A stretch of DNA of 61,657 nucleotides. Origin: a virus (Duplodnaviria; Caudoviricetes). The notes below the pieces were generated by a model. That model made no database searches. It had not been told where the DNA came from and saw nothing but the letters and a program-made list of their open reading frames with translations. The position numbers were made by a program, and so were the translations under genes. Of this stretch, positions 2,217-42,373 are shown one piece after another. The number at the start of each line of letters is the position of its first letter. Position 1 is the stretch's first letter. Where the stretch lies: the IMG/VR virus record IMGVR_UViG_3300009514_000025, positions 1 through 61,657 of that record. One strand, written 5' to 3'.

Positions 2217-2597
2217 TTAATCCTCGAATTGAATATTTAATTCAAAATCATCTACGGTGTTTAATTCAACATAATACAATTCTGCACTCACATATACAGA
2301 ATTGGTATCAAAATTAGGAGTCACTGATAAACTAACAAGAGACACCCTTGGATCATAATCAAATATTGTAAGAAGTTCAGCGTATACTTCGTCTATTAGA
2401 TCGCCATCAAGTTGTTCAAATGCAAGTTCAGGTATACTGCTGCCAAAATCAGGCATCATTACTCTGGTACCACGCGTGGTGAAAATATGATTCAACAAGT
2501 CTATTTTCACCAATTCAATGTCCCTAATACTTAAAGACTTATTTCGTTGAAATTCAAAAGTTGAATATCCTTTATATAAATTTTTGCGTAGTGCCAT
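2217..2597 (-). CDS. Baseplate wedge protein, gp25-like
   Basis: DLLNHIFTTRGTRVMMPDFGS...YDPRV motif of the gp25/GPW family. Confidence 0.9.
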   Translation of the reverse strand: MALRKNLYKGYSTFEFQRNKSLSIRDIELVKIDLLNHIFTTRGTRVMMPDFGSSIPELAFEQLDGDLIDEVYAELLTIFDYDPRVSLVSLSVTPNFDTNSVYVSAELYYVELNTVDDFELNIQFED

Positions 2598-7282: not shown

Positions 7283-7311
7283 TTGACACAGCTAAAAAAG
7301 TGATATATAAT
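7283..7311 (+). promoter_or_regulatory. Consensus sigma70 promoter for the gp55-gp47-gp46 operon
   Basis: TTGACA (7283-7288), 17 nt spacer, TATAAT (7306-7311). Confidence 0.85.
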
Positions 7312-7332
7312 AACTATTAATTGGAGATAAAA

Positions 7333-7851
7333 ATGGCAAAAGAAGAAGAATTAAAAGCGCCGGCCAAGAAAAAAGTCAACTATATACGAAACAAAGACTT
7401 GCTTGCTGAAGTAATAGCCTGTAAAGAACAGGGTAAAATGTCAAATAAGTTAGCCCGAATGCTTCAATTGCTGACCGCAAAATATGGGCGTTCTTCACAG
7501 TTTGGTGGATACACCTTTAACGAAGATATGCAAGCCTATGCAATGATGATGTTGTGTAAAACATGGGTTGGTTTTAACCCCGAAAGAAGCGATAATGCCT
7601 TTGCTTACTATACCCAAAGCATTAAAAATTCATTCAAACAGTTCTTAAACCGTGAAAAGGTTCAAAGAGTTGTGCGAGATGAACTATTAGTAGATAAGGG
7701 CTTAAACCCATCACATACGTATACAATTGAACATTCTGATGCAGACCATCATTATGTACATGATGAAGAAGATCATCAACAAGTCGTGCAGGATATGAAA
7801 GAAATAAATGAAAATGATAGTTCAGAAGAATTAATTATTTTTAACAAATAA
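7333..7851 (+). CDS. Late-transcription sigma factor, T4 gp55-like
   Basis: NYIRNKDLL...FGGYTFNEDMQAYAM...FNPERSDNAFAYYTQ; sits upstream of gp47/46 as in T4-like phages; GGAG RBS favours the MAKEEE start. Confidence 0.85.
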   Translation: MAKEEELKAPAKKKVNYIRNKDLLAEVIACKEQGKMSNKLARMLQLLTAKYGRSSQFGGYTFNEDMQAYAMMMLCKTWVGFNPERSDNAFAYYTQSIKNSFKQFLNREKVQRVVRDELLVDKGLNPSHTYTIEHSDADHHYVHDEEDHQQVVQDMKEINENDSSEELIIFNK

Positions 7852-7876: not shown

Positions 7877-8926
7877 ATGGGTGATACTAAACCCACGCTG
7901 AATAAGGGTGCATTCTTTACAGATTTGCACGTAGGCGCTAAATCTAATTCACAGCAACATAATGAAGATTGTGTCAATTATATTGATTGGTTCTGCGCAA
8001 ACGTAAAGGCAGATCCAACGATTGACTATATTTGTTTCGTGGGGGATTGGCATGAAGTCAGAAGTGCAATTAATGTATTTACTTTGAAGTATTCATATGA
8101 AATTGCTATAAAAATCAATGATTTAGGTCTTCCTGTATATTTTATCATAGGAAACCATGATTTATACCACAGAAATAATAGGGATATTTATTCAGTTATT
8201 CCGTTTCACGAATTTGAAAATTTCACCATTATTGACGAACCTACAGTAATTGACAACATTGCGGATGGTGTGTTAATGTGTCCATTCCTATTCCACGAAG
8301 AATATCCCAAGTTGGTGAAATATAACAAGATTCCATTTTGGGTAGGACATTTTGAATTTAAGGGTTTTGTGGTTACTGGTTATAATATCACCATGAAAAC
8401 TGGTCCAGATCACACGGATTTCAAAGGTCCAGAACATATTATATCTGGACATTTTCATAAACGGCAGACCAGTGGAAACGTAACCTATATAGGGAATGCT
8501 TTTCCAACCAATTTCAGTGATGCGGATGATATTGAACGTGGTATGATGGTTTTTGACCATAAAAAGAAAGATATGGTGTTTTTTGATTGGGCAGAATGTC
8601 CTAAGTATATTAAAAGCTCGCTTTCGGATATTGTGGCAGAAAATATCACATTATACCCTAATGCACGTGTTAGATGCATTGCCGATATTCCCATAACATA
8701 TGAGGAAAGTCTGGAATTGAAGAAAACATTTATAGAAAAATATAATCTTCGTGAATTTTCTATTGAAGAATCCAGTGAAATTAACGAAGCATTATCAGAA
8801 ACTGAAACAAATGTTGATGACAAAGACCTTGGTACTGTTGATGAAATGGTAGTTGAAATGTTGGGAGATATTGAATCTGATCACATTAATAATGAATTAC
8901 TTACAAAGATATACCAAAATTTATAA
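7877..8926 (+). CDS. Recombination nuclease gp47 (Mre11/SbcD-like)
   Basis: Metallophosphoesterase motifs TDLH, GDW, GNHD, GHFH. Confidence 0.92.
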   Translation: MGDTKPTLNKGAFFTDLHVGAKSNSQQHNEDCVNYIDWFCANVKADPTIDYICFVGDWHEVRSAINVFTLKYSYEIAIKINDLGLPVYFIIGNHDLYHRNNRDIYSVIPFHEFENFTIIDEPTVIDNIADGVLMCPFLFHEEYPKLVKYNKIPFWVGHFEFKGFVVTGYNITMKTGPDHTDFKGPEHIISGHFHKRQTSGNVTYIGNAFPTNFSDADDIERGMMVFDHKKKDMVFFDWAECPKYIKSSLSDIVAENITLYPNARVRCIADIPITYEESLELKKTFIEKYNLREFSIEESSEINEALSETETNVDDKDLGTVDEMVVEMLGDIESDHINNELLTKIYQNL

Positions 8927-8952: not shown

Positions 8953-11900
8953 ATGATTAGGTTTAAACAACTTTCAATTAAAAATTTTCTTTCATACGGT
9001 GAAGCACCAACAGTAATAGACCTTGATGATATTGGTACTACACTGATCGTAGGCGAAGATCTCGACAATACTGCAAGTGGTACTGGCGCTAATGGCGTTG
9101 GTAAAGCACAACCACTCCATTGTAAAATAAAAACTCCTACAGGTTGGACAACGATGGGTGATATTTCTATTGGTGATGTAGTTAGTACACCAGATGGAAA
9201 AACAGCGACCGTAAAAGGTGTATTTCCACAAGGTGTAGTAGAAACATACAAAATATATTTTGCCGATGGTAGAACTACAGAAGCTTGTGGTGAACACCTA
9301 TGGAAAGTTAACAGCCATAGATGGAGAAATGATAAAAAATCAAATGCTTCAAAAATTATCACAACGAAAGAATTGAAACAATGCGTCGATGAAGCAAACA
9401 TCAAAAATAAATCATGGTATAATTGTACCATTCCAATGGTCAATCATCCAGAAGTTCAAGATGTATCTTTGCCTATAGATCCTTATTTGTTAGGAGCTTT
9501 GATTGGCGATGGTACAATATGTTATAGGAATATTAGATTTACATCCAAGGATGATATCATTATTGATGCTGTTTCTAACATATTAAAGGAAGATTTTTCA
9601 CAGGAATTATCTCATGAGAAGGATTACAATTATTATGTTAGAAACACCATTAAAAGAGTTGGATATAATCCAGTGGCTGATATCTTAAATGAATTATCGT
9701 TACTTGGTACTAACTCTCATAATAAATTTATCCCAAAAATATATTTAGATCATGCGAGCAAAGATCAAAAAATTCGACTTTTACAAGGACTGATGGATAC
9801 TGACGGTACTGTAGGTAAAAATGGTGCTGTTACATTTTGTTCCACGAGTAAACAACTAATTGAAGACGTACAATATTTAATTCGTAGTATTGGTGGAAAA
9901 GCCAAGATATCATCAAGAATACCAACATACTCGGATGTTTTTGGTAATAAAATAAATGGAAAACTAGCATATAACCTTTTAATACAGTATGCTTCACCAA
10001 AAGATTTGTTTACTTTACCGCGCAAACAACAGAACATTAATGAAAATTATCAATATGCTAATGCAGGTCTACGTGTTTTACGTGTAGAAAAAATACAAGA
10101 CCAAGAAGCACAATGTATTATGATCGATCATCCAGATCGATTATATGTTACAGATGATTTTATAGTTACGCATAATACTGTGTGGATTAACGCACTTATA
10201 TTCGCATTATATGGTAAACCAATATCTAATATTTCTTTAGACAATCTTATTAATAATATTAATAAGAAAAATATGGAAGTCTCCGTTGAATTTGAAAAAG
10301 ATGGTGAAATTATAACAGTTTCCCGTGGTCGAAAAGTAACGGGTAAGGGCAATTTCGCTAAAATCTTTGTTCGTCCGATGGGTGTTGATTTGGATGAACA
10401 ACTTCATGATGAAACACCTGACAGTATTAAAAATATTACAGACTTCGTTGTCGAAAAACTTAGCATACCATATGAACTGTTTGTTCGTATCGTTGCATTT
10501 GCCGCAACACATACACCGTTTCTTGATTTGCCTGTTAGACATGCTTCACAGGCAAATCAGTCTGATATTATGGAAGAACTGTTTAGATTAACCCAATTAT
10601 CTGTTAAGGCCGAATCTCTTAAAATAGAAATAAGAGATACTAAGCAGAAGTTGGAAATTAAGATTAAACATAATGAACAACTTGAGAAAGAACACGAACG
10701 CCATAATAAATTGCTCGATACTGCGCAAGGCCGTGTTGATGAATGGGAAAAGGAACGCGAAGAAAACATTACAATCATAGAAAAGGAACTTACAAAATAT
10801 AAGGCTGTTCCTGTTAAAGAACAGGAAAAATTATATAAGCGTGTCGATGAGTTAAAGGTTATGCTTGTCAAAGAAAAAGAAAAACAGTCCGAAATTGAAT
10901 CAGTAGTAACAAAAATTAGTGCTGACTATACAATAGTAAAAGCAAATCTAAAGCGCGTTGAAGAAGAAAAAGAAAAGATTTTAACTTGGAAAGAAGAAAA
11001 TACCAAGAAGGTTGCTAGATATAAAGAAGAGGCGGATAGACTACCAAAAGCACATATACTTGATGAACAAACTACTTTACATCAAACATTAAAAGGTTTG
11101 ATGGAAGATTTAGAAACGCTTGTTACAAAAGAAAGCGAAATGAAGTCAACCATTAAGGACACTATTAAAGCTATAAACAAAGCCGAAAAGGAACTAGTTC
11201 ACCTTGAAGATGAAAAATGCCCATATTGCTTACAACAGTATGCGGATGCGACTAATAAGGTTGATGAATGTAGGGAAACCATAAAAATTAAACAACAGGA
11301 AGAAATTGATGGCACTATGCTTTTGGATGTTGTACAGAAAAATATAAAAAAGACGGAAAAAGATATAGAAGCAGTATCAAGTGATATTAAGTATTCAGTA
11401 GATCAAATAAAAGAATATGAACGCTTACGCGCAGATTATATTATAAAATTGGAAGAACTGCTTAATGAAGAATGTCCTCATGGTGATAAAACTTCCGTGG
11501 GTGATATGATTACTATAATTTCCAATCTGAAAAAGGAATCTGCAGCACTTAAAGAAAAACTTTCAGCAGAAGCAGAGGATTTAGTAGAAATAGATGAAGT
11601 GGTAGAAGCACTCTCTAAAGAGTTGGAAAATTGTGAAAATGCTATCGTTATTCCATCATTAAATGAATTATATGAAATCAAAAACAAGATTAAACAATGT
11701 AAAGATAAGGTTAAGGAATTAAACGGTGCGGCAAATCCATATCTTGAACCATTAAAAGAATTGGAAGATATTAAACTTGAACCAATTGATATGGATGCTA
11801 TTAATGAATTGAATAACCTAATAACACACCAAAATTATCTGGTTAAATTACTGACCAAAAAAGATAGTTTTATTAGAAAGACATTATTGAATAAGAACTT

Positions 11901-12315
11901 GGCATTCTTAAATCAGCGATTGAAGCATTACCTAACTGCATTGGGATTACCACATAAGGTTGAATTTACACACGAAATGACTGCGAACATATCACAGTTT
12001 GGTAGGGAACTTGATTTTGGTAACCTATCCAGTGGACAAAAAGCTCGCGTAAACCTTGGTTTGTCGTTCTCATTTAGAGATGTATTACAGAAATCACATG
12101 ACAGTATTAATGTCTGTATGCTTGATGAAGTATTAGATGTGGGACTTGATTCAGTCGGTGTACAAAATGCAGCAAGGATGTTGAAGCGCAAAGCACGAGA
12201 TGAAGACTTAGCGCTATACATCATTTCACATAGGGATGAAGTCAGCAACATCTTTGACAGAAAAATGATAGTACAAATGGAAAAGGGATTTAGTTCAGTG
12301 AAGGTAGAGAATTAA
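8953..12315 (+). CDS. Recombination ATPase gp46 (Rad50/SbcC-like) containing an intein
   Basis: Walker A GANGVGK|T split by an insertion; coiled coil with CPYC zinc hook; LSSGQ signature; MLDE Walker B; ISH. Confidence 0.93.
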   Translation: MIRFKQLSIKNFLSYGEAPTVIDLDDIGTTLIVGEDLDNTASGTGANGVGKAQPLHCKIKTPTGWTTMGDISIGDVVSTPDGKTATVKGVFPQGVVETYKIYFADGRTTEACGEHLWKVNSHRWRNDKKSNASKIITTKELKQCVDEANIKNKSWYNCTIPMVNHPEVQDVSLPIDPYLLGALIGDGTICYRNIRFTSKDDIIIDAVSNILKEDFSQELSHEKDYNYYVRNTIKRVGYNPVADILNELSLLGTNSHNKFIPKIYLDHASKDQKIRLLQGLMDTDGTVGKNGAVTFCSTSKQLIEDVQYLIRSIGGKAKISSRIPTYSDVFGNKINGKLAYNLLIQYASPKDLFTLPRKQQNINENYQYANAGLRVLRVEKIQDQEAQCIMIDHPDRLYVTDDFIVTHNTVWINALIFALYGKPISNISLDNLINNINKKNMEVSVEFEKDGEIITVSRGRKVTGKGNFAKIFVRPMGVDLDEQLHDETPDSIKNITDFVVEKLSIPYELFVRIVAFAATHTPFLDLPVRHASQANQSDIMEELFRLTQLSVKAESLKIEIRDTKQKLEIKIKHNEQLEKEHERHNKLLDTAQGRVDEWEKEREENITIIEKELTKYKAVPVKEQEKLYKRVDELKVMLVKEKEKQSEIESVVTKISADYTIVKANLKRVEEEKEKILTWKEENTKKVARYKEEADRLPKAHILDEQTTLHQTLKGLMEDLETLVTKESEMKSTIKDTIKAINKAEKELVHLEDEKCPYCLQQYADATNKVDECRETIKIKQQEEIDGTMLLDVVQKNIKKTEKDIEAVSSDIKYSVDQIKEYERLRADYIIKLEELLNEECPHGDKTSVGDMITIISNLKKESAALKEKLSAEAEDLVEIDEVVEALSKELENCENAIVIPSLNELYEIKNKIKQCKDKVKELNGAANPYLEPLKELEDIKLEPIDMDAINELNNLITHQNYLVKLLTKKDSFIRKTLLNKNLAFLNQRLKHYLTALGLPHKVEFTHEMTANISQFGRELDFGNLSSGQKARVNLGLSFSFRDVLQKSHDSINVCMLDEVLDVGLDSVGVQNAARMLKRKARDEDLALYIISHRDEVSNIFDRKMIVQMEKGFSSVKVEN
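9106..10176 (+). mobile_element. Class 3 intein (357 aa) with LAGLIDADG homing endonuclease
   Basis: Starts AQPLHCKIKTPTGW, ends IVTHN before +1 Thr; LLGALIGDG and LLQGLMDTDG motifs; W (EHLW), C (AQCI), T (VTHN) triad. Confidence 0.9.
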
Positions 12316-12461
12316 TGGAGGTGATATCTGACTTTACCTTTATGAGCATATCGCTAGTTAGCGATCCCATGGAAGGGATGGAAATAAGAACTTCAATGGA
12401 ATATGATGATGAAAATATCATAGATAAATATGATAAAGCAATGAAACTATTGGAGACATAG
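12315..12461 (+). CDS. 48-aa protein with C-terminal YDKAMKLL tag variant
   Basis: Below the ORF-track cutoff; ATG overlaps the gp46 stop (TAATG) and its TAG abuts the next ATG; MEVISDFTFMSISLVSDPMEGMEIRTSMEYDDENIIDKYDKAMKLLET. Confidence 0.6.
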   Translation: MEVISDFTFMSISLVSDPMEGMEIRTSMEYDDENIIDKYDKAMKLLET

Positions 12462-12809
12462 ATGAACGAACTAGATATTATAAATTACGCTAAAGTAGTA
12501 ATAAAGGATGTAATGACCAGCTTTTTATTTGAACCTGCTGATGAAGTAACCTTCGCATATATGAAGAAATCAATCATCAGTAAAATGGTTAATGACATTG
12601 ACACAGAACTTAATTTCCATGTTGAAGTCGATTTAGAAGATGGCAATCCACGGGTGGTAATGGAACTTTTCAACATTAACGATGAAGAAAGCACAAGGAT
12701 TATTGCACGATATGCAGATTGTCCTGTATTACCAAAAACTGAACAGATATCCGAAGTTAAAAAGGATGAAACCAGTATTGCATTTGAACGAGCAATGGAA
12801 ATTGTATAA
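12462..12809 (+). CDS. Tail-sheath C-terminal-like fragment with AFERAMEIV tag
   Basis: IINYAKVVIKDVMTSFLFEPADEVT aligns with sheath LIKYIKRQLRRNTLSFVFEPNDQLT. Confidence 0.7.
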   Translation: MNELDIINYAKVVIKDVMTSFLFEPADEVTFAYMKKSIISKMVNDIDTELNFHVEVDLEDGNPRVVMELFNINDEESTRIIARYADCPVLPKTEQISEVKKDETSIAFERAMEIV

Positions 12810-13105
12810 TGAATAAGACAATAGATGTTGAAATTTTAGATTTATCTTCACTTACACCAGATGATAATTTTGTACTTATTCGTGTTGACGTTGGGAAAAT
12901 GCCACCACAGCGAGTCCATGACTACGTTATAAAGGTCAAGGAACAATTTGAATTGTGTAAAAAATTAGAAAAAAAGAACATCCAATATTCTGTAATTGGG
13001 TGTCGATCAGATGGTAGACAAGCCGTTGAAGTATCAATTGAATATAAAGACGATGAGCCTGTTTCTACTACAACAGCATTTGATGAAGCAATGGAGATTG
13101 TATGA
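12809..13105 (+). CDS. Portal clip-like fragment with AFDEAMEIV tag
   Basis: DVGKMPPQRV is identical to the portal protein at 21587-21616. Confidence 0.75.
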   Translation: MNKTIDVEILDLSSLTPDDNFVLIRVDVGKMPPQRVHDYVIKVKEQFELCKKLEKKNIQYSVIGCRSDGRQAVEVSIEYKDDEPVSTTTAFDEAMEIV

Positions 13106-13434
13106 AATATTGGAAAGATACAGATATTGAACATATTGAATATGAAGAGGGTGGTTGTACATTACCACATAACAAGCCTGCATCTATTGCAACATCAGAT
13201 ACGATGCGCGTAGAAACGGAAATCATTCCAAATACAGCACAAGTACGTAAATACGTGAACTCATATACGTTTGAAATGGATGAAGGTATGTGTGTTGACG
13301 TTGAACGTAGAATTTGGCGAGGTAATAGCCCTATGCATCTTGAAGTTATTTTTGTTCCTTTATCAGCATTTGGATACGATAAAGAACCAAATAATCATGA
13401 TGTGGCATTTGATGATGCAATGAAAATCATATAA
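13102..13434 (+). CDS. Small protein with weak capsid-like segment and AFDDAMKII tag
   Basis: MRVETEIIPNTAQVRKYVNSYTFEM vs capsid MTMDVVSQSVEAGSRKLQAGWTIEA; ATGA overlap with previous gene. Confidence 0.55.
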   Translation: MKYWKDTDIEHIEYEEGGCTLPHNKPASIATSDTMRVETEIIPNTAQVRKYVNSYTFEMDEGMCVDVERRIWRGNSPMHLEVIFVPLSAFGYDKEPNNHDVAFDDAMKII

Positions 13435-13540: not shown

Positions 13541-14029
13541 ATGAAGATATTGGGTATAGACCAAAGTTACAATGCGAGTGGGATAATAGTTCTGGAAGGT
13601 GATAATATCCTTCATTCAGAATGTTTTAAATCCAACAAAGATTTTGACCGATTTGGACAAGCATATGAAATTGCTGTTCATATTGGAAATATTGTAGATA
13701 CTTACAAACCGGATATTGTTGCTATTGAAGGTCTTGCATTTGGGATGCGAGGGAACGTCACCCGTGACTTAGGTGGATTACAATTTGTAATTGTTGCACA
13801 TTTACAGGAAGTAAAAAAGCAACCAGTGGTGATAATCGCACCATTGACAGTAAAGAAATTTGCAACAGGTAGCGGCAAAGCTACAAAATCGGAAATGATT
13901 GAAAGATTACCTACATACGCACTTGATAATTTTTTAAAACTTGGTGTAAAAAAAACTACAGGCCTGGCAGATCTTTGTGATGCATTTAATATATGTAAAT
14001 GTGCCGAATATCAGAATCAGAACAATTGA
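13541..14029 (+). CDS. RuvC-like Holliday junction resolvase
   Basis: ILGIDQS, VAIEG, VKKFATGSGKATK, DLCDA motifs. Confidence 0.88.
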   Translation: MKILGIDQSYNASGIIVLEGDNILHSECFKSNKDFDRFGQAYEIAVHIGNIVDTYKPDIVAIEGLAFGMRGNVTRDLGGLQFVIVAHLQEVKKQPVVIIAPLTVKKFATGSGKATKSEMIERLPTYALDNFLKLGVKKTTGLADLCDAFNICKCAEYQNQNN

Positions 14030-20800: not shown

Positions 20801-22435
20801 ATGACAGCAAAATGGACAGGATATTTTAAGGTTGTAACCCCACAACAGTCAACCACGAAAATGACAGACAGCCAAGAAATGGCTGATGCTGGCGCATATA
20901 ATAATTATACTTGGTATCAACGTTTAATTCAAGGCTCTGCTTCTCGTATGACACGTTATCGTGAATATGATTTAATGGATAATGATATTGAAGTTGCGCG
21001 AGCGCTCGATACAATCGCAGAAGAAATGACAGGAAATAATCCTAAAACAAAAGAACCATTAAAGCTTGATATCTTAACAGAAGACGAAGACAATGTTGAA
21101 AGTGTTGCAGTCTTAACCTTAAAGGCGGCGCTTCGACGTTGGGCACAGATGCATAAGTTTCCAAATCGCCTTTATGGTATCGCCCGTTTAACTATTAAAT
21201 ATGGTGATGTATTTTTTCGTAAAGGCAAAAAATTAAGTGATAAATGGGAATTTATACATCCAAAAAATGTTCTTGCTGCTGTAGTTGACCAGAATGATGC
21301 AACAAAAGTTATGGCATGGCAAATTAAAAAAGATATTGAAAAACCAAGAACAGGTGGTTATTCAATGCCTATTGGTGCAAAACAAGACTCTGCACACGAA
21401 AGCGAAATTATAGATGCGAATGAGATTATTCGTTTCTCTTTAAATGATGATATGGCAGATACACAGCCATTTGGTGAATCTGTTCTTCGCCCAGTTTATC
21501 GTTCACATAAACAAAAAGAACTGTTAGAAGATGCGGTTATCATTTATCGTGTACAGCGTGCACCAGAACGCCGCGTATTTTATATTGATGTTGGTAAGAT
21601 GCCTCCACAACGTGTAAAACAATATTTGGAAGGTATTAAGAACGAAATCAAACAAAAGAAAATTCCAACTATGAATGGTGGTCAAAATGAAGTTGACTCC
21701 GTTTATAATCCACATTCAATGAACGAAGACTTCTTCTTCGCATCGCGTCCAGATGGTCGCGGTTCCCGTGTTGAAACATTACCAGGTGGTCAAGGTCTTG
21801 GTGAATTATCAGATCTCGAATACTTTCAACGTAAAGTATGGCGTGGTTTGAAAGTTCCTGTTTCTTATATGATTGAACAACAGGAAGGTGGACAGATTTG
21901 GAATGATGGTAAAGTAGGCATTGCTTATATTCAAGAATTGCGTTTCTCCTTATATGTTGAAAGATTACAAGGTTATATTGAAGAAGTATTAGACGAAGAA
22001 TTTAAATCATTTTTACGTAAGACGAATATTCGTATTGATGAATCAATGTATCGTATTATGCTTCCAGAGCCTTCTAATTTTGGCAAGTACCGTCAACTTG
22101 AATTGGATAGTCAGTTACTCAGCGCATATACAACACCAGATGGTATTGGTTATATGTCTAAACGCTATGCAATGAAACGCTACTTGCAGATGTCAGATGA
22201 AGAAATCGTTACTAATGAACGTCTTAAACGCGAAGAATTGGGTCTTGATCCAGATGGTGATGATCCTAAAGACCTTCAACAAATTTATGGTGCTGCTGAA
22301 GAAGGTGCCCTCGGCGGCGGTGGTGCCCTTGGCGGCGGATTTGGCGGCGCAGAACTAGGTATGGGTGGCGCAGCTGCCCCAGAAGGTGGGATTGGTGCCG
22401 AAGCACCAGCCGGCGGAGAAGCGCCTCCAGCGTAA
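20801..22435 (+). CDS. Portal protein, gp20-like
   Basis: LLEDAVIIYRVQRAPERRVFYIDVGKMP, EDFFF, VETLPGG, LKVPVS motifs. Confidence 0.95.
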   Translation: MTAKWTGYFKVVTPQQSTTKMTDSQEMADAGAYNNYTWYQRLIQGSASRMTRYREYDLMDNDIEVARALDTIAEEMTGNNPKTKEPLKLDILTEDEDNVESVAVLTLKAALRRWAQMHKFPNRLYGIARLTIKYGDVFFRKGKKLSDKWEFIHPKNVLAAVVDQNDATKVMAWQIKKDIEKPRTGGYSMPIGAKQDSAHESEIIDANEIIRFSLNDDMADTQPFGESVLRPVYRSHKQKELLEDAVIIYRVQRAPERRVFYIDVGKMPPQRVKQYLEGIKNEIKQKKIPTMNGGQNEVDSVYNPHSMNEDFFFASRPDGRGSRVETLPGGQGLGELSDLEYFQRKVWRGLKVPVSYMIEQQEGGQIWNDGKVGIAYIQELRFSLYVERLQGYIEEVLDEEFKSFLRKTNIRIDESMYRIMLPEPSNFGKYRQLELDSQLLSAYTTPDGIGYMSKRYAMKRYLQMSDEEIVTNERLKREELGLDPDGDDPKDLQQIYGAAEEGALGGGGALGGGFGGAELGMGGAAAPEGGIGAEAPAGGEAPPA

Positions 22436-24166: not shown

Positions 24167-25144
24167 ATGGAAGAACTGCTGCAAAAACTATTGGAAGCAG
24201 AAGTGCTATCTGAGGATACTAAAAAAGAATTAGAAGGTGCTTTCCAAAAGAAATTGGACGAAGCGATTACTGCTGCCAAAGATGATGCCGCAGCAGATGT
24301 TCGCGCTGAACTTACTGAACAGTGGGTTACGGAACGCGATCAGCTTGTAGAAGCTGTCGATACCAAGGTTACAGAATTCCTTGCGAAGGAAGTCGAAGAA
24401 CTTAAAGAAGACATTGAGCGTTTTCGCGATCTTGAAGCTGAATATGCTGAAAAGTTGGTTGAATCTAAAGCTGCTATGTCTGATGAGTTAAAAGATGATT
24501 TGATGGAACTCGTAGAAAAAGTTGATGCATTCTTGGAAATCCGCCTTAGTGCTGAAATCGAAGAATTGCGCGAAGATCTTGAAAATGTTCGTAAGAATGA
24601 TTTTGGTCGTCGTGTATTTGAAGCATTTGCTGAAGAATTTACAATTAATTATGCTGATGAAGATTCAGCAGAAAATACATTGCGTGAAACAACTGAACGT
24701 CTTAAAGACGTTGAAGAAGCACTTCAAGAATCTGAAACTAAGCGTCAGGAAATTGAACGTACTATTGCAATGGAAACAGTTTTATCACCTCTTGCTGGTC
24801 GCCAGCGTGAAGTGATGGAAGCAATCCTCCGAAATGTTGACACGGAACATTTGGAAGAAGGCTATAAGACCTTTATTGGTCGCGTAATCCGTGAAACAGA
24901 TAGCTCAGAGAAGGAAGATTCAGTACTAGCTGAGAGTGATGATAATGATGACGATGATGACAAGGACGACAAAGATTCTAAGAAGAAGTCTAAGAAATGT
25001 AAAGATAAAGACGACGACAAGGAAGAAAAAGTCGAAGAAGGTCGTAAAGTCACTGGCGATACCGAAGAAATGGTAATGGAAACAGCTGATCCTGCAAACG
25101 CAGCGCGGCTTGCATATTTTCGTAAACTCGCAGGCATTGAATAA
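24167..25144 (+). CDS. Prohead scaffold, gp22-like
   Basis: Acidic coiled coil, FGRRVFEAFAEEF, ends RKLAGIE; between protease and capsid; ATAAATA at 24094. Confidence 0.88.
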   Translation: MEELLQKLLEAEVLSEDTKKELEGAFQKKLDEAITAAKDDAAADVRAELTEQWVTERDQLVEAVDTKVTEFLAKEVEELKEDIERFRDLEAEYAEKLVESKAAMSDELKDDLMELVEKVDAFLEIRLSAEIEELREDLENVRKNDFGRRVFEAFAEEFTINYADEDSAENTLRETTERLKDVEEALQESETKRQEIERTIAMETVLSPLAGRQREVMEAILRNVDTEHLEEGYKTFIGRVIRETDSSEKEDSVLAESDDNDDDDDKDDKDSKKKSKKCKDKDDDKEEKVEEGRKVTGDTEEMVMETADPANAARLAYFRKLAGIE

Positions 25145-25172: not shown

Positions 25173-26648
25173 ATGAATGAATTATTCGAAAATTGGTCAG
25201 AAACGAAAGCAGCATTGCTTGAAGGTCTTTCCGCACAAAAACAAAAGGTTGTAGCACCTTTGCTGGAAAATCAGAAAGATCATTTGATCGCTGAATCCGC
25301 CGCAGCAGGTTCTACACAAGCACATGACATCGCTGGATTTCGTAAAATCTTAATTCCAATGATTCGTCGTATTATTCCAGGCACAATTGCTACTGAGCTT
25401 GTTGGTGTTCAGCCAATGACTGGTCCGGTTGGTCTTGTTTACACTTTGCGTTATCGTTACGCAGAAGCTGTAACTGCTACTTCACATGCTAACCCATTTG
25501 GCTTTACTGGTGCAATTAGTGTTGATGATGAAGTATTCGGTAACAGTTCACCAATCCGTCAGTGGTACTCTGGTGCTGCTGGTGATGGTACTGCTTCACC
25601 TAACACACTTCCAACAAATCAAATCCCAGGTGCTGGTGCAATTGATAACTCATATTCAATGGGTTCTGGTTCACCTGCAACAGGCGCACCAGGAATTGAT
25701 GCAGCATCTGCAAATGGTATGGCATGGCCTTCAAGCCTTGGCGCGTCTGCAGGTAACACTGGTTATGTTGATGGCCTTGGTCAGACAGTGGCTGGTTCAG
25801 TTTGGGGTGGTTCTGGTAGCTACATCGAAGGTTCTGGTGGTCGTAAGATGACTATGGACGTTGTTAGTCAGTCTGTTGAAGCTGGTAGCCGTAAGTTACA
25901 AGCTGGCTGGACTATTGAAGCTATGCAGGATCTTAATGCACAACATGGTCTTGATCTTGAATCTGAAATGACACAGGCATTGTCTGCTGAAATCGTTCAG
26001 GAAATCGACCAAGAAATCATCACTGATCTTCTTGCCCTTGCTGGCACAGTTGATACATTTGATGGTTCTGCTGCGGGTGCCTATGGTACTGGCGGTAATT
26101 ATACACCTGCTTATGTTGGTGATCGTCTTGCTAACCTTGGGGTTGTTATCAATCGCGTAGCAAACGAAATCGCACGTAAGACACGTCGTGGTGCTGGTAA
26201 CTTCATCGTTGTTTCACCATTGATTGTTTCTGTTCTTCAGTCTGCTGCTAAGTCTGTCTTTGCACCTGCTGTTGATGGTTCATTCAAGGGCCCAAACAAC
26301 ACAATGTTGGTTGGTACGCTTAACGGCACAATCAAGGTTTATAGCTATCTTTGGAACCAAGCTGGTTCTGGTATTGACATGGGCGGCGTCGCTTCCCCTA
26401 GCAATGCTGACGATACTATTCTCGTTGGTTATAAAGGTGGTAATGGAGAAACTGATACCGGTTACTTCTATTGCCCATACATTCCATTGATGTCTTCTGG
26501 TGTTGTTGTTAACCCAACAACGTTCCAACCAGTTGTTAGTTTGATGACTCGCTACGGCAAGTCCGTCTTCACTAACACGCAAACATCTTTGGGTAACAGT
26601 GCTGATTACTACGGTAAGATCACGGTTGCAAACCTTGACCTTGCTTAA
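25173..26648 (+). CDS. Major capsid protein, gp23-like
   Basis: GVQPMTGPVGLVYTLRYRY, SRKLQAGWTIEAMQDL, EIDQEII, TRRGAGNF, GYFYCPYIPL, TRYG. Confidence 0.96.
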   Translation: MNELFENWSETKAALLEGLSAQKQKVVAPLLENQKDHLIAESAAAGSTQAHDIAGFRKILIPMIRRIIPGTIATELVGVQPMTGPVGLVYTLRYRYAEAVTATSHANPFGFTGAISVDDEVFGNSSPIRQWYSGAAGDGTASPNTLPTNQIPGAGAIDNSYSMGSGSPATGAPGIDAASANGMAWPSSLGASAGNTGYVDGLGQTVAGSVWGGSGSYIEGSGGRKMTMDVVSQSVEAGSRKLQAGWTIEAMQDLNAQHGLDLESEMTQALSAEIVQEIDQEIITDLLALAGTVDTFDGSAAGAYGTGGNYTPAYVGDRLANLGVVINRVANEIARKTRRGAGNFIVVSPLIVSVLQSAAKSVFAPAVDGSFKGPNNTMLVGTLNGTIKVYSYLWNQAGSGIDMGGVASPSNADDTILVGYKGGNGETDTGYFYCPYIPLMSSGVVVNPTTFQPVVSLMTRYGKSVFTNTQTSLGNSADYYGKITVANLDLA

Positions 26649-33621: not shown

Positions 33622-35370
33622 ATGGCAACTTTGGTAAGTCCAGGAGTAAGCGTAACAGTAACAGATGAAAGCTTTTTCATCCCTGTATCCGCACCTACAG
33701 TTCCTTTGTTTTTTATTGCGACTGCCGATGAAAAACTACGACCAGATGGCGTGACGCCAGCGGAAGGTACGTATGAATATAATGTCGTTCGCACTGTTAC
33801 ATCTTTGAATCAAAGTACCCAATTATATGGTGTTCCTAGATTCCTTGAAGATCCTGCAACAGGTGCTGCACATCATGGTGATGCACGAAATGAATATGGA
33901 TTATTTGCAGTAAATCAATTTTTAGGCATAGGCAATCGTGCTTATGTTGTTCGTACAAATGTTAACTTAAATGATGAACTTTCTGATATTCGCACCATGT
34001 GGGATGCGAAAATGCTTGAATCTAAAGTAGTCCTTGAAAACTTGATCCAGGATTTTATGAATGAAAAGGATGCAATCGCAGGCGATCTTCCCGGTACGAC
34101 AACGACTGTAACCGCTTCCGAATTACAAGATCTTACAAGAACAGCGACAGAAGATTTATTTGACTCTTATTCTTTTAGTAATGTAGATACAGATTTCTTT
34201 GGTTCGGTTGGATCTGCTTCTGGTCTTAATGTATATGCAAGCGGATATGATATGCCAGCTACTGACACATATGATGGTTACGACTATATATCGGGCAACT
34301 TAAGTTCATATTCATATCCTGGTGGTGCTACAATAGCAGGCGAATTTACTCCGCAAGAAGGTGGTGATTTCTTAATTGCTACTGCCGATGATATGAAATT
34401 TACAGTTGAATTTTTAAATCAAACAAGCCTTGGTGCTAACGACGCAGCTCGTCGTGTTGCTATTGCAACAGCTTTCCAAGCATCAATTAATAGTAACACA
34501 GATATTCGTTCTGAAAATTTTGACTATAACTTAATTCTTTGCCCAGGTTGGCCTGAAGTTGCTGATGAACTTCTAACGCTTGTTGCAGATATGCAGGATG
34601 AAGCATTAGTTATCTCAGATACACCAATGAATTTAAATCCAGATGGAATCACCAACCCAAGTACTGGTTGGGCTGCATCAACAGATCGTCAACGTTCTAC
34701 GCATATTGCGTATTATTATCCATCTGCGCTTGCTTCAAATCTTGATGGTAAGAATGTAGTAGTTGCAGCATCCGGTGTTGCGCTTCGCACATACACTTAT
34801 AGTGATAATGTATCGTTCTTGTGGTTTGCACCCGCTGGTATTCGTCGTGGTCTTATTACAGGCATAACTAATCTTGGATATGTTTCAGGCGAGCTTGGCA
34901 CACCAACAACATTTGTTCCAGTGGCTTTGAATCTTGGTCAACGTGATGCGATGTATCAATATGCTGCATCTGGAGACATTAACCCATTGGTATTCTTCCC
35001 GGGTAATGGTTTCCTTGTTTGGGGTCAGAAGACATCTGCACCAGCAGCAAGTGCACTGGATCGTGTTAATGTTTCACGACTTATTAAATATATTAAACGT
35101 CAGTTACGTAGAAATACTTTAAGCTTCGTATTCGAACCAAACGATCAATTAACCCGCGATAACTTGAAAGCTGTTATAGATGGTTTCCTTGGAGATTTAA
35201 TTGTCAAGCGCGGGTTGTATGACTTTGCTACTGTCTGTGATGAAAGTAACAATACACCGGATAGAATTGATAGAAATGAAATGTATGTTGATATTGCTTT
35301 GAAACCTGTTAAGGCAGCTGAATTCATTTACATTCCAATTCGCATAGTCGCAACTGGTGCGGAAATTTAA
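33622..35370 (+). CDS. Tail sheath protein, gp18-like
   Basis: LVSPGVSV, WFAPAGIRRG, WGQKT, DRVNVSRL, FEPND, CDESNNTP; TATAAATA at 33558. Confidence 0.95.
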   Translation: MATLVSPGVSVTVTDESFFIPVSAPTVPLFFIATADEKLRPDGVTPAEGTYEYNVVRTVTSLNQSTQLYGVPRFLEDPATGAAHHGDARNEYGLFAVNQFLGIGNRAYVVRTNVNLNDELSDIRTMWDAKMLESKVVLENLIQDFMNEKDAIAGDLPGTTTTVTASELQDLTRTATEDLFDSYSFSNVDTDFFGSVGSASGLNVYASGYDMPATDTYDGYDYISGNLSSYSYPGGATIAGEFTPQEGGDFLIATADDMKFTVEFLNQTSLGANDAARRVAIATAFQASINSNTDIRSENFDYNLILCPGWPEVADELLTLVADMQDEALVISDTPMNLNPDGITNPSTGWAASTDRQRSTHIAYYYPSALASNLDGKNVVVAASGVALRTYTYSDNVSFLWFAPAGIRRGLITGITNLGYVSGELGTPTTFVPVALNLGQRDAMYQYAASGDINPLVFFPGNGFLVWGQKTSAPAASALDRVNVSRLIKYIKRQLRRNTLSFVFEPNDQLTRDNLKAVIDGFLGDLIVKRGLYDFATVCDESNNTPDRIDRNEMYVDIALKPVKAAEFIYIPIRIVATGAEI

Positions 35371-38945: not shown

Positions 38946-39385
38946 GCACTGAAACGAAAGAAATAGAAGTAGCAATTGAACATCCATTAGAAGAGATATT
39001 CGATGTGGAAGCAGGTACGACTCTTATGCCTCGTACCGAAAAAACTACTGAACTGGTAGCATCAGAAGAGTACGATAACAAAGACAAAGAAATCGAAAAC
39101 CAGTTTCAAGAAGTTTATGATGCTGCACTTTCTGCGTTTGAAGATCAAGTTGCTGAAGCAGAAGTTATTGAGGGGAAGTATAAAGCCCGTAACATGGAAG
39201 TTGGTGTTCAATTATTGAATACTGCCTTGGCAGCAGCAAAAGAAAAATCTGGCTTAAAACAACACAAAGATAAAACAGCTATTGCTAAAGGTAAGCTAGG
39301 AGTAAAAACGACCAACAATACGTTGATTATTGCTGATCGTAATGACATCTTAAGAACAATGATGGGTAATAAAAAAGAAGATTAA
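38942..39385 (+). CDS. Terminase small subunit, gp16-like
   Basis: Helical 147 aa, ARNMEVG.QLL..AL, C-terminal NNTLIIADRNDIL; upstream of the large subunit. Confidence 0.7.
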   Translation: MSTETKEIEVAIEHPLEEIFDVEAGTTLMPRTEKTTELVASEEYDNKDKEIENQFQEVYDAALSAFEDQVAEAEVIEGKYKARNMEVGVQLLNTALAAAKEKSGLKQHKDKTAIAKGKLGVKTTNNTLIIADRNDILRTMMGNKKED

Positions 39386-40692
39386 TCCAATATTTCCATT
39401 GCCACTTCAAAAGCATCAGTAACATTTTCCATCAAATCTACTTCTTTTGTTTCTTCTTTCTTAATTTTTAATTTATTTAACTTTGGTAAATTATCAAATG
39501 TTATTTCAACATAATAATCGCACGGTTCTTTTGTGATTGTAGTTAATGAACCATCTTTTGTAGTGTCTACTTCTTGTTTTTGATTGACATATTTACCATA
39601 ACGACTCATAAATTTAATAACAGGCGCAAATGTATTAGGGTCAATAATAACGCCCGTAGTCATCAATGGGATATATGGTGCATAGAAGTATCCTGCATCT
39701 ATTTCACCATTTCCGCCTTTATAACCAACTATGGCTTTATCTTGCTTAAGACCATAGTCACAGTATATTTTGATCATATCATTCCACGTTCCAAGATATT
39801 TAACATAACCATAATCTTTATCCGTTTCTGATGTTTTTACGAATTTTTTACTATTTTTTAAAATTTCAGCAATTGTTTCGGAAACGATTGCAAAATTGCC
39901 TGCACCTCTTCGGGTTCTTTGTGCAATTCTATTTGCGGCACGATTAATAAGAAATTCGATAGTTTGAATTACATCGTTTGTAATACACATATCATCAGCC
40001 AAATTTTTTGACATATCAAAAGTTTCTTTATGAGCGACAGCACAGATATCATTTCTGATTTCTTCATATATTTCTTGTGCAATTTCATTGCCATAATCTC
40101 TGTCATCTGGAATACCAGTTCCAGATATGTCTTGTTGGGCGACAATCTCCATATTAAGTTTTAATTTTCTACTACTTGCTTCTAATGCAGCTGAATTAAT
40201 TTCAAGGCTTAGTCTTGTTTCTTGATCTTCACCAATTGTATTAACTTTTTCCGTTTTATATTGTAACAAATAAATTAACCCAACTGGACCAGTCATTGGT
40301 TGAATACCAACAAAATGTTTAGCAACTTGTTGATCTATCATGCGTTCTGCAAGAGATTTAAGTATATGATCTTGTGAAATTGTATGTATTGAACTATTGT
40401 TGTGAGCATTGACACTACTGATATGATTTTTCATATTTTCCATCAATGATTGTTTAACCTTATCTACGGATTCAATAGTTGGTGATTCTTTTGTTAAATC
40501 AGCAACGGATAAGACTGTTTCTTCTTCTGAAGATGTGAATCCCGTTTCAGGTACGATATCTTCTAATTCTTTAATGAGTTCACTAAATGTAAACGATTTT
40601 TTTGTCTTTGTCACAATTGAATTTTTATCTTTAGCGCGCAAATCAGCAGCCGGATCTTCCAGCATCATTTTTTTCATTTTTTCGATATCCAT
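39382..40692 (-). CDS. Major capsid protein paralog with AFEVAMEILD C-terminal tag
   Basis: VGIQPMTGPVGLIY, SSRKLK, ANRIAQRTRRGAGNF, VGYKGGNGEIDAGYFYAPYIPL, MSRYGK. Confidence 0.85.
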   Translation of the reverse strand: MDIEKMKKMMLEDPAADLRAKDKNSIVTKTKKSFTFSELIKELEDIVPETGFTSSEEETVLSVADLTKESPTIESVDKVKQSLMENMKNHISSVNAHNNSSIHTISQDHILKSLAERMIDQQVAKHFVGIQPMTGPVGLIYLLQYKTEKVNTIGEDQETRLSLEINSAALEASSRKLKLNMEIVAQQDISGTGIPDDRDYGNEIAQEIYEEIRNDICAVAHKETFDMSKNLADDMCITNDVIQTIEFLINRAANRIAQRTRRGAGNFAIVSETIAEILKNSKKFVKTSETDKDYGYVKYLGTWNDMIKIYCDYGLKQDKAIVGYKGGNGEIDAGYFYAPYIPLMTTGVIIDPNTFAPVIKFMSRYGKYVNQKQEVDTTKDGSLTTITKEPCDYYVEITFDNLPKLNKLKIKKEETKEVDLMENVTDAFEVAMEILD

Positions 40693-40816
40693 GAACTCAT
40701 CCTCTTTTCTTTGTATTTACTATTGAAAAAATTCTACATGCAATAGATTGGTAACCTAAAGATTTGGTATAGTAAATAAAGATATGGAAATAGGATAATA
40801 ATTAAGGAAGATTGTA

Positions 40817-42373
40817 ATGGCGCGCGCAAAGAATAATAACCTAAAGAAACCTGGACAGGAACTTGAATATACACATGAACAGGTGATGGAATTGAAGCGC
40901 TGTGCAGAAGATCCAATCTATTTTATAAAAAAATATGTACAGATTCAACATCCAACAAGAGGCGCTATACCATTTGACCTTTATTCTTATCAGGAAAAAA
41001 TGATAAGGGCATATCAAGATAACCGTTATACGGTTGTTCTTTCTGCACGCCAAACAGGTAAATCTGTTACATCCGCTGCATATCTTCTTTGGTATGCAAT
41101 GTTTCATTTTGATAAAACTATTTTGATTGCATCTAATAAAAACGCAAATGCAATGGAAATGATTCTGCGTATTAGATTCGCGTATGAAAATCTTCCTTTC
41201 TGGTTGAAACCTGGCGTTAAAGACGATGGTTGGAATAAGCACGAAATTGGTTTTGATAATGGTTCTCGTATTGTGTCAACTGCAACATCAGAAGATTCTG
41301 GTCGTGGTATGGCTATTTCACTTTTATTCCTTGATGAATTTGCATTCGTAAAACATGCTATTCAAGATGAATTTTGGACATCTATTGCACCTACATTATC
41401 AACGGGTGGTTCATGTATAATGACATCCACTCCAAATGGTGATATGAACATATACGCACAAGTTTGGCGTGGTTCACAAATGGGTACAAATGGATTTTAT
41501 CCTATACATGTTAAGTGGGATGAGCCACCAGATCGTGATAGCAAATTTAAAGAAGCGGAAATTGGAAGAATCGGTGAAAGACGCTGGCAACAAGAATATG
41601 AATGTGTATTTTTATCATCCGATTCGCTGTTGATCGATTCTTTATTCTTAACAAATATTTCATCAACAATTGAAAAGATCGTTCCTAAGCTTACAGTAAA
41701 TGATGTTGTTTTATTTGAAGATATAAAACCGATGACAACCTATTTGCTTGGAGTTGATCCTGCAACCGGCAATGGTGAAGATTTTAGTGTTATAAGTATA
41801 TATGAATTTCCATCAATGGTTCAAGTTGGCGAATATCGTTCTAATACTATGTCAACAAATGATTTATATGGTGTTATGAAAAATATTCTAAAACACATGG
41901 AATCGAAAGGTGCCATGGTATATTTCTCAATAGAAAATAATGGTGTTGGTCAGGGACTGATCGCATTATATGAAGCAGATGAAGATCCTTTGAACACGGT
42001 TGAATTTATTTCCGAAGATGGTAGAAATAAATTAGGATTTACCACGACTGCTCGTAGTAAAATGCGTGCATGTGTTAACCTGAAGGAAATGCTTGAGAAA
42101 TCTAATATGCATATTCGTTCCAAAATTCTTTTATCTGAATTGAAATCTTATGTTCGACATCGTGGCGCATATGCAGCGCAACCAGGTGCCACAGATGATT
42201 GTATTGCTGCAACACTTATTGTACTTAGACTGGTAGAAGAAATTGCATCATATGAACAAGCTGCTTTTGATAAGCTATATTCTGGTGACTATGATGAATG
42301 GGACTCGTCAGAGTGGGATGGTTATGAAGAAGGTTACGATGATAACGATGAAGGAATGCCAATTTTATTTTAA
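40817..42373 (+). CDS. Terminase large subunit, gp17-like
   Basis: ARQTGKS Walker A, LFLDEFAF Walker B, TSTPNG, GVDPATG, DDCI. Confidence 0.95.
   Translation: MARAKNNNLKKPGQELEYTHEQVMELKRCAEDPIYFIKKYVQIQHPTRGAIPFDLYSYQEKMIRAYQDNRYTVVLSARQTGKSVTSAAYLLWYAMFHFDKTILIASNKNANAMEMILRIRFAYENLPFWLKPGVKDDGWNKHEIGFDNGSRIVSTATSEDSGRGMAISLLFLDEFAFVKHAIQDEFWTSIAPTLSTGGSCIMTSTPNGDMNIYAQVWRGSQMGTNGFYPIHVKWDEPPDRDSKFKEAEIGRIGERRWQQEYECVFLSSDSLLIDSLFLTNISSTIEKIVPKLTVNDVVLFEDIKPMTTYLLGVDPATGNGEDFSVISIYEFPSMVQVGEYRSNTMSTNDLYGVMKNILKHMESKGAMVYFSIENNGVGQGLIALYEADEDPLNTVEFISEDGRNKLGFTTTARSKMRACVNLKEMLEKSNMHIRSKILLSELKSYVRHRGAYAAQPGATDDCIAATLIVLRLVEEIASYEQAAFDKLYSGDYDEWDSSEWDGYEEGYDDNDEGMPILF

Follow-up and report, generated by a model that had tools for sequence, protein, structure and literature searches.

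The DNA analyzed here, IMG/VR virus record IMGVR_UViG_3300009514_000025, is a 61.6-kb genome fragment (37% G+C) of a T4-superfamily phage, and "the window" below means this whole stretch. Directly behind the gene for the Rad50-like protein gp46 (8953..12315, +), the window contains a cassette of small open reading frames (ORFs), designated wA to wD, whose products carry a common C-terminal peptide, hereafter called the tag. The cassette is translationally coupled to the gp46 stop codon and consists of wA (12315..12461, +; 48 aa), wB (12462..12809, +; 115 aa), wC (12809..13105, +; 98 aa) and wD (13102..13434, +; 110 aa); the next gene encodes a RuvC-like resolvase (13541-14029). An initial annotation, made from the sequence alone, had described four small genes translationally coupled behind gp46, with the junctions TAATG, TAG-ATG, TAATG and ATGA, and had read the endings of their products as YDKAMKLLET, AFERAMEIV, AFDEAMEIV and AFDDAMKII. 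The coordinates agree with this arrangement, no gap separates the ORFs from gp46 or from one another, and the endings are exactly as read. The same annotation counted four genes; there are really three, as wA and wB share one reading frame and are fused in a relative. wA is what remains of the N-terminal part of a longer gene; its tag-like ending lies at 12429-12458. The tag is encoded at 12780-12806 in wB, at 13076-13102 in wC and at 13405-13431 in wD.

Relatives were collected in RuvC-anchored searches that yielded 9 loci and then 44 loci. The relative G002, a 363,531-bp contig from IMG/VR rated 100% complete by CheckV, was found there with a degenerate DNA pattern for the tag plus a stop codon, which retrieved two stretches; G001 is a 100-kb relative. 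Family searches of Pfam and PHROGs with wA to wD gave nothing above threshold. In a collection of cultured phages, there was no blastn match and no tblastn match with wC, and a related-locus search with wC as the sole query found none. A word-index search returned seven homologs of wD, two of wB and one of wC.

The wA and wB reading frames are fused, split or overlapping depending on the relative. In the window, an in-frame TAG codon (12459-12461) separates wA from wB; G001 has both fused as one 308-aa protein, in which approximately 125 additional residues lie centrally; and in G002, they are overlapping ORFs whose frames differ. wA matched residues 27-50 of the fused G001 ortholog, where the apparent tag of wA is an internal tag-like stretch. 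The wA body had no significant match to any window protein, and we regard a match between the middle of the fused G001 protein and the prohead protease (E 0.04) as unproven.

A C-terminal tag shared by non-homologous proteins

The tag has the consensus F-[DE]-x-A-M-x-[ILV]-[ILV] and was found only at protein C-termini. In the six-frame translation of the window, the regular expression given in the initial annotation had 5 matches, all of which ended 0-2 residues before a stop codon; these were the four cassette ORFs and, as the fifth carrier, a 436-aa gp23-family protein encoded at 39382-40692(-). When a slightly looser motif was applied to G002, 13 of the 15 matches lay <=6 residues from a stop in frames of >=40 aa, and the other two, located 3 and 7 residues after a stop, were noise. 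The reversed motif, used as a control, had six matches in G002, none of them near a stop. The looser motif had 8 matches in the window, 5 of which were genuine, and 3 in G001, 2 of which were genuine. The common tag that had been claimed for the cassette ORFs was borne out by these searches, and it extends genome-wide in G002.

We compiled tag statistics from the 20 genuine tagged proteins of the window, G001 and G002. Position 0 was F in 16 proteins and Y in 4, position +3 was A in 18, and position +4 was M, as set by the regular expression; position +6 was I, L or V, and position +7 was V, L or I. The distance between the tag and the stop was 0 residues in 11 proteins, 1 in 6, 2 in 2 and 6 in 1. 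The 20 positions before the tag contained a mean of 4.4 acidic residues compared with a background of 2.6 per 20, in agreement with the acidic linkers noted initially. In the predicted models of wB and wD, the tag was a short helix following a low-confidence linker, and the linker of wB (residues 90-101) is disordered. Inspection of the same 20 positions in the 20 tagged proteins showed no conserved protease-type cleavage motif.

The proteins have little in common apart from this ending. The N-termini of the cassette proteins are unrelated, and the shared peptide lies 0-6 residues from the C-terminus throughout. Profiles of wB, wC and wD from which the last 16 residues had been removed matched one another with HHalign probabilities of 0.2-0.8%, so that for these three the bodies are mutually unrelated, as had been proposed. 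In particular, an earlier match between wD and wC came from the tag, because the HHalign probability of 74% with tags fell to 0.8% once the tags were removed. The folds of the bodies also differ: wB is alpha/beta, wD is predicted to be all-beta, and the tagged gp23-family protein is HK97-type. Because the bodies are unrelated and their folds differ, the tag is a module common to non-homologous proteins.

The model of wD was all-beta (AF2 pLDDT 86, based on a thin alignment of ten sequences) and matched no known fold. Its best Foldseek probability was 0.51, with all E values >= 0.1, and its best Z-score was 3.7 over 48,161 chains. Sequence and profile searches of wD against the major capsid protein (MCP), the gp15-like protein and the portal protein gave no support for a relationship; the weak capsid resemblance that had been suggested for wD was recovered by no search. 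Within the wD family (10 sequences, 41-70% identical), the tag residues F, A, M and I were invariant and among the best-conserved positions.

A sliding-clamp motif was also considered for the tag and was dropped, since the C-termini of gp55 in this clade end otherwise. A regular expression for the gp55-type ending in G002 found gp55 and one further ORF only.

The portal segment of wC

Residues 26-57 of wC (12884-12979) aligned with residues 262-292 of the window's own portal protein (20801..22435, +; PHROG portal E 5e-98), with a sequence identity of 47% and a BLAST E of 1e-4 among the window ORFs; the comparison with the portal in G002 gave a BLAST E of 3.4e-4. The HHalign probability for wC and the portal was 90.6% with the tag and 86.8% without it, the latter with an E of 4.3e-6 over 33 columns. 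These values confirmed that wC contains a portal segment, which the initial annotation had recognized from an identical decapeptide. This decapeptide, residues 263-272 of the portal (21587-21616), aligned to residues 288-297 of T4 gp20 when the portal was compared with gp20 by phmmer.

According to the excerpted text of PMC4493910, the clip domain of T4 gp20 comprises residues 279-358, lies outside the capsid and is the place where gp17 attaches. The same excerpts report that N291, M292, R295 and K296 at the clip tip contact gp17, that mutation there abolishes packaging, and that a 24-residue gp20 peptide (288-311) binds gp17 and inhibits packaging in vitro. As its portal match falls on the T4 clip tip that contacts gp17, wC carries the terminase-docking tip of the portal. 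By analogy, wC may bind the large terminase (TerL; 40817..42373, +), the presumed natural partner of the portal clip tip. A complex prediction for TerL and wC, run without controls, scored 0.00 and speaks neither for nor against binding.

wC is not itself a portal protein, as it had no Pfam match and only portal residues 261-293 were matched. Nearly all codons of the decapeptide differ synonymously between wC and the portal gene; therefore, the clip-tip copy is old and has been selected at the protein level.

The predicted fold of wB

The model of wB contained two helices and a three-stranded sheet (AF2 pLDDT 73.8, based on a thin alignment of five sequences). The Foldseek search with this model revealed gp25-type chains as the top 5 matches, with the T4 gp25 entries 5iv5 and 5iw9 first (probability 0.98-0.99, E 0.02-0.14). 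The highest VIA Z-score, 9.8, was obtained with a chain of the phiKZ neck entry 9xps, in its C-terminal part; we take this chain to be sheath. VIA also aligned wB with gp25 over 86 residues (Z-score 8.1-8.2) and with the sheath C-terminal domains of 3lml and 5li2 (Z-score 7.7-7.8).

In sequence comparisons, wB matched the tail sheath protein with a BLAST E of 0.03 among the window ORFs and 0.34 in a second search, and the FLFEPAD motif of wB aligned with FVFEPND of the sheath. No Pfam or PHROG profile matched wB. The sheath C-domain identity originally proposed for wB thus stood in part: the sequence similarity is weak, but the predicted fold and the clear sheath C-domains found in tagged proteins of relatives, described below, are in its favor. 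We conclude that wB may fold like the sheath C-terminal/gp25 handshake domain, a proposal that comes from the model with weak sequence support.

A genuine baseplate gp25 is encoded at 2217..2597 (-); it matched PF04965 with an E of 3.1e-8, above the family cut-off, and was 77-79% identical to the copies of the relatives. Therefore, wB is an extra gp25-like protein and no stand-in for the baseplate gp25. It lies outside the baseplate module, diverges rapidly and is tagged.

Tagged proteins and virion-protein chimeras in relatives

The interval between gp46 and RuvC varied among the relatives. It contained two tagged ORFs in G001 and in L001, which have the same ORFs there, and four in G002, where the order was A-B-D-C compared with A-B-C-D in the window. 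One of three ORFs was tagged in L006, and a single ORF of 329-379 aa with a variant ending was present in L003, L004 and L005. The interval was empty in L007 and L009/L058, and L054 had one untagged ORF of 105 aa. In 37 RuvC-anchored loci that are more distant (L054-L090), a scan for the tag revealed no credible instance and one probable chance match.

G002 also encodes a 435-aa tagged chimera. BLAST matched its segments to sheath 505-610 (E 2e-21), MCP 412-447 (E 8e-5) and portal 329-412 (E 9e-19), and Pfam identified Phage_sheath_1C (1.6e-9), Portal_T4 (6.3e-12) and Gp23 (0.011); the segments correspond to the whole sheath C-domain, a segment of the MCP and the clip and stem of the portal. 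A search of the ESM Atlas with the chimera gave only leads below 0.9, one of which was a 231-aa viral cluster annotated as a sheath C-domain. The 379-aa protein of L003 matched portal residues 286-375 with an E of 1.5e-20 and the MCP with an E of 0.013, and the protein of L004 was similar; Pfam found Portal_T4 in the L003-type protein with an E of 9.5e-16. The 145-aa tagged protein of L006 matched sheath residues 532-594 (BLAST E 4e-8). The corresponding parts of the window's own virion proteins are the C-terminal domain of the tail sheath (33622..35370, +; residues 477-582) and segments of the MCP (25173..26648, +), which is untagged.

The chimeras cover only positions 218-308 of the 433 positions of the Portal_T4 profile. 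Because wC and the chimeras match limited portal stretches, they are fragments of portals and not portals. Among the 1084 six-frame ORFs of G002, four non-self ORFs matched the portal, sheath, MCP, TerL or protease at E < 0.01, and two of the four were tagged. Judging from these matches, several of the tagged bodies originate from the portal, sheath and MCP.

The tagged genes diverge rapidly relative to the core genes, with identities among relatives of 38-48% compared with 65-91%. The window shares 83-91% identity with G001 or G002 in the portal, MCP, protease, sheath, tube and TerL (83-88% for the portal, MCP, sheath and TerL) and 68-73% in gp46 and RuvC; the corresponding values were 38-43% for wB, 44% for wC, 39-47% for wD and 42-48% for the tagged gp23 paralog. 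The cassette ORFs remain open in all relatives.

Two further genes of G002 deserve mention. An untagged 304-aa copy of the TerL ATPase domain (324103-325017, +, within L040; 43% identity) lies just upstream of the real TerL gene and has no counterpart in the window. In addition to its gp21-type prohead protease, G002 contains a ClpP-family protease ORF (232537-232836, -, L043; PF00574 E 5.5e-13) approximately 8 kb from the chimera gene; no AAA_2 unfoldase and no ClpX zinc-finger match above the family cut-off were found in G002.

The tagged gp23 paralog

The fifth tag carrier of the window (39382..40692, -) is distinct from the real MCP and has a C-terminal extension of approximately 35 aa that ends in the tag (39385-39414). 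It belongs to the Gp23 family, with a Pfam E of 2.5e-55 and a phmmer E of 2.3e-18 to T4 gp23, and is nearer to T4 gp23 than to T4 gp24. Among relatives, sequence identity is 42-48% for this paralog and 88% for the MCP. In a library of 1.8 billion proteins, all 10 best representatives of the paralog carried the tag or a close variant of it, which was recognized by the regular expression in 6 and by eye in 4; the tag was absent from the next 22 representatives printed, and 9 of the 150 entries in the whole list matched the regular expression. The tag is retained on the paralog down to approximately 39% identity and is old there. Matches in the cultured-phage collection were 29.5-32% identical or less and never extended past residue 400. 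A third gp23-family ORF of G002 (24225-25121, -, within L025; 298 aa; Pfam Gp23 E 9e-11) is untagged and could be the true vertex protein.

Promoter motifs and timing

The string of genes that ends in the cassette begins with gp55 (7321-7851) and gp47 (7877-8926), which are followed by gp46. At its head lies a sigma-70 consensus (7283..7311, +) with 12/12 hexamer matches and a 17-nt spacer. The consensus promoter at 7283 that had been described initially is therefore present, and from its sequence this site probably functions as the promoter of the gp55-gp47-gp46-cassette string.

The octamer TATAAATA is the late-promoter consensus of T4. In the window, such octamers precede the sheath gene, the tube-like ORF at 36136 and other + strand ORFs, and no exact T4-type late octamer was found near the cassette. 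Likewise, exact TATAAATA was not found on the coding strand within 600 nt of 10 tagged G002 loci, although the whole G002 genome contains 56 octamers; at 124.7 kb, the opposite strand has one octamer approximately 270 nt past the 3' end of the tagged gene.

In the divergent spacer between the paralog and TerL (40693-40816), the motif TAGTAAATA faces each gene, 22 nt upstream of the paralog and 46 nt upstream of TerL. By its sequence, TAGTAAATA may be a variant late promoter, and the gp23 paralog may be a late gene because this near-late-promoter motif sits 22 nt upstream of it and is mirrored at TerL.

Other genes of the window

The window encodes the portal, prohead protease, a scaffold-like gene, MCP, sheath, tube, terminase and gp25. 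The gp46 gene is interrupted by a 357-aa intein-like insertion (9106-10176; gp46 residues 52-408) right after the Walker-A lysine. The insertion is not found in the orthologs of 763/764 aa, ends with HN followed by T and contains a LAGLIDADG_3 domain; we regard it as a probable intein that carries a homing endonuclease. Between the head-completion and small terminase genes, an HNH/treble-clef endonuclease ORF (38007-38945) is probably a mobile homing gene, since it is just 40-41% identical to its best matches in G001 and G002. Next to the 196-aa tube gene, an ORF of 455 aa (36136-37503) contains a tail-tube-like domain; it is 54-71% identical across relatives, compared with 88-89% for the tube gene. 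Finally, a 1946-aa ORF (51525-57365) contains ISDITAE-like repeat units, which were evident as repeated weak self-BLAST matches.

Proposed role of the tagged proteins

The phages that use the tag are a clade of uncultured T4-superfamily jumbo phages. The architecture proposed in the initial annotation, with bodies partly taken from virion proteins, a linker and a common ending, was borne out and reaches well beyond the cassette; decoys, protease adaptors and dominant-negative poisons, which it had suggested as functions, are candidates. The explanation that we prefer, with roughly even confidence, is that the tagged proteins are modular conflict or regulatory adaptors, which combine mimics of interfaces with a docking peptide for a single common partner and are made before the late proteins. 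Each protein would consist of a variable body, a flexible acidic linker and a C-terminal amphipathic helix of two turns. This helix, F-[DE]-x-A-M-x-[ILV]-[ILV], positioned within approximately 2 residues of the C-terminus, would dock onto one common partner. We read several of the bodies as long-diverged copies of surfaces by which virion and packaging proteins bind their partners, namely, the portal clip tip that docks with terminase (wC), the sheath C-terminal/gp25 handshake (wB, and more clearly its counterparts in relatives), segments of the capsid protein and a whole gp23 paralog. Such mimic bodies would bind whatever recognizes the original surfaces; candidate targets are TerL and sheath subunits, of the phage itself or of a rival phage, or host sensors of virion proteins. 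Through the tag, a captured target would be connected to the common partner, and the adaptors would be expressed from the gp55-gp47-gp46 operon ahead of the late proteins. We infer the binding to terminase and sheath, the single partner, the timing and the purpose.

Bacterial pattern-recognition receptors, such as Avs-type STAND proteins and similar systems, sense conserved virion-protein surfaces. The tagged proteins might accordingly serve counter-immunity by self-mimicry, in which early, diverged copies of surfaces of the portal, sheath, capsid and possibly other virion proteins would capture the sensors and the tag would deliver them to a common neutralizing partner; we think this unlikely. 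For example, this partner could be a protease, a scaffold that sequesters the sensors or a platform resembling a capsid and formed by the tagged gp23 paralog. Further host factors would be bound by the remaining tagged bodies, giving a plug-in family of adaptors. This arrangement can be likened to viral adaptors that hijack one ubiquitin ligase via a shared motif.

Several observations weigh against adaptors with mimic bodies. First, 9 of the 13 tagged G002 proteins had no BLAST match at E <= 1 to identified virion proteins, including the portal, sheath and MCP; the nine include Cys-rich paralogs, a DUF6794 protein and two further paralogs. The tag is therefore a general module that is not specific to structural fragments, and mimicry is just part of the picture. 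The two tagged ORFs among the four additional virion-matching ORFs of G002, on the other side, speak for an enrichment of the tag in structural fragments. Second, the link between wB and the sheath is weak by sequence (HHalign probability 3.6-3.8%), and the wB fold is a common alpha/beta arrangement that does not decide the matter alone, because unrelated enzymes also reach Z-scores of 8-9.4. Third, the G002 ortholog of wC keeps only 5 of the 10 decapeptide residues (G, M, P, P and R) although TerL is 87% identical, a looser conservation than a tight TerL binder would be expected to show. Fourth, a single hub for the tag is an assumption, and the expression and timing of the cassette are read from promoter motifs, with a late consensus that is that of T4. 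The gp23 paralog, moreover, may be a late capsid component, which would favor a role of the tag in capsid targeting.

In such a role, the tag would be a C-terminal capsid (prohead) targeting peptide, a counterpart of the T4 capsid-targeting sequence or of encapsulin cargo-loading peptides, that takes the fast-evolving small proteins and the gp23 paralog into the head, and the bodies would be effectors injected with the DNA. We consider this explanation somewhat unlikely, even though a short conserved peptide on hypervariable, unrelated bodies, with several copies per genome and shuffling, is also found in the T4 internal proteins, and a body with a disordered linker and a C-terminal peptide is the layout of encapsulin cargo. 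It would also suit the facts that the sole widely conserved tagged protein is in the capsid-protein family and that the gp23 paralog lies behind a near-late-promoter motif shared with TerL. The cassette, however, sits in the gp55-gp47-gp46 operon with its sigma-70 consensus and no late octamer nearby, inspection of the linkers showed no conserved protease-type cleavage motif, and the tag is at the opposite end from the T4 signal. Additionally, the T4 portal clip, according to the excerpts of PMC4493910, and the sheath domain lie outside the head, and it is not obvious what their copies would do within it.

An improbable alternative, which is a special case of the hub idea, is that the tag is a C-terminal degron or a tether to an unfoldase, which would make the tagged proteins short-lived or pass their bound targets to a protease (host Clp/Lon or a phage ClpP-like protein). 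The arrangement of a body, a flexible linker and a short hydrophobic C-terminal peptide resembles known adaptor tails and degrons, and the ClpP-family ORF of G002 is close to the chimera gene, but the same genome has neither an AAA_2 unfoldase nor a ClpX zinc finger above the cut-off. Furthermore, the distance from the tag to the carboxylate varies (0, 1, 2 or 6 residues) together with the last residues, and a capsid-family protein carrying a degron would need a special explanation. It is highly improbable that the genes have no common function and are debris of partial duplications, with the 3' end kept as a recombination linker or as a ribosome-binding stretch for the next gene: the tag-coding ends of the cassette do overlap or abut the next start, with GGA/GGAG 7-9 nt before the wC and wD starts, the cassette order differs among relatives and the tagged genes diverge quickly, but the tag is also present on genes without a coupled downstream gene (wD, with its 106-nt spacer, the gp23 paralog and 9 scattered G002 genes), the ORFs are open in all relatives with F, A, M and I invariant in the wD-family tag, the clip-tip copy was kept through synonymous change, and the tag of the paralog was retained to approximately 39% identity.

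If the tagged proteins are indeed adaptors with mimic bodies, they would be the first natural family of virus-encoded mimics of a virus's own assembly interfaces wired to one docking peptide. They would make it possible to study directly how terminase, sheath and capsid proteins are regulated or protected by giant phages, could show how such phages escape immune sensors of conserved virion folds, and would offer a portable tag-and-bait design for targeting proteins in phage-infected cells. If capsid targeting were true instead, the tag would be a new C-terminal packaging signal, and its bearers in this uncultured clade of jumbo phages would form a new group of ejected proteins. The tag is, in addition, a simple sequence marker for finding further accessory genes in metagenomes.

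Comparison with known systems

In full-text searches of the open literature, we found no described equivalent of this system, as the initial annotation had anticipated. We compared the tagged proteins with the nearest analogues. The internal proteins of T4 carry an N-terminal capsid-targeting sequence that is cut off by the prohead protease. Both sets have a short conserved peptide on unrelated, fast-evolving small proteins encoded in plastic regions, with a possible shuffling point; in the present case, by contrast, the peptide is C-terminal, there is no evident cleavage motif, the operon is of an early type, and copies of virion surfaces are present. In encapsulin cargo proteins, a flexible linker joins the body to a short C-terminal peptide, which docks on an HK97-fold shell protein. 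The layout is similar, and an HK97-type gp23-family protein is among the tagged set, although the consensus is different, an encapsulin operon is absent, and the tag sits on the shell-family protein itself. In SspB-type adaptors, the body binds the target, and a long disordered linker leads to a very short peptide at the C-terminus that tethers them to an unfoldase. They share the layout, and many cargos could likewise share one hub; in contrast, there is no sequence or fold relation (no Pfam match), and no unfoldase was found in G002.

For the individual bodies, the closest parallels concern terminase and sheath. Residues 26-57 of wC align with the T4 gp20 clip peptide 288-311, including the equivalents of N291, M292, R295 and K296 (PMC4493910, excerpts); that peptide is a laboratory reagent, whereas the copy described here is phage-encoded within a tagged small protein. 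Gpi, a small protein of the PLE satellite, binds the large terminase and blocks packaging, according to the abstract of bioRxiv 10.1101/2024.04.22.590561. Unlike the tagged proteins, Gpi belongs to a satellite and is directed against the helper phage, and that abstract reports neither portal mimicry nor a shared tag family. T4 gp25 is the initiator of sheath polymerization (entry titles of PDB 5iw9 and 5iv5); wB differs from T4 gp25 and TssE in its position outside the baseplate module, its fast divergence and its tag. None of these nearest analogues combines mimicry of the virus's own interfaces with a shared tag, and the presence of one tail peptide on many unrelated small proteins suggests that the tagged proteins form an undescribed modular system.

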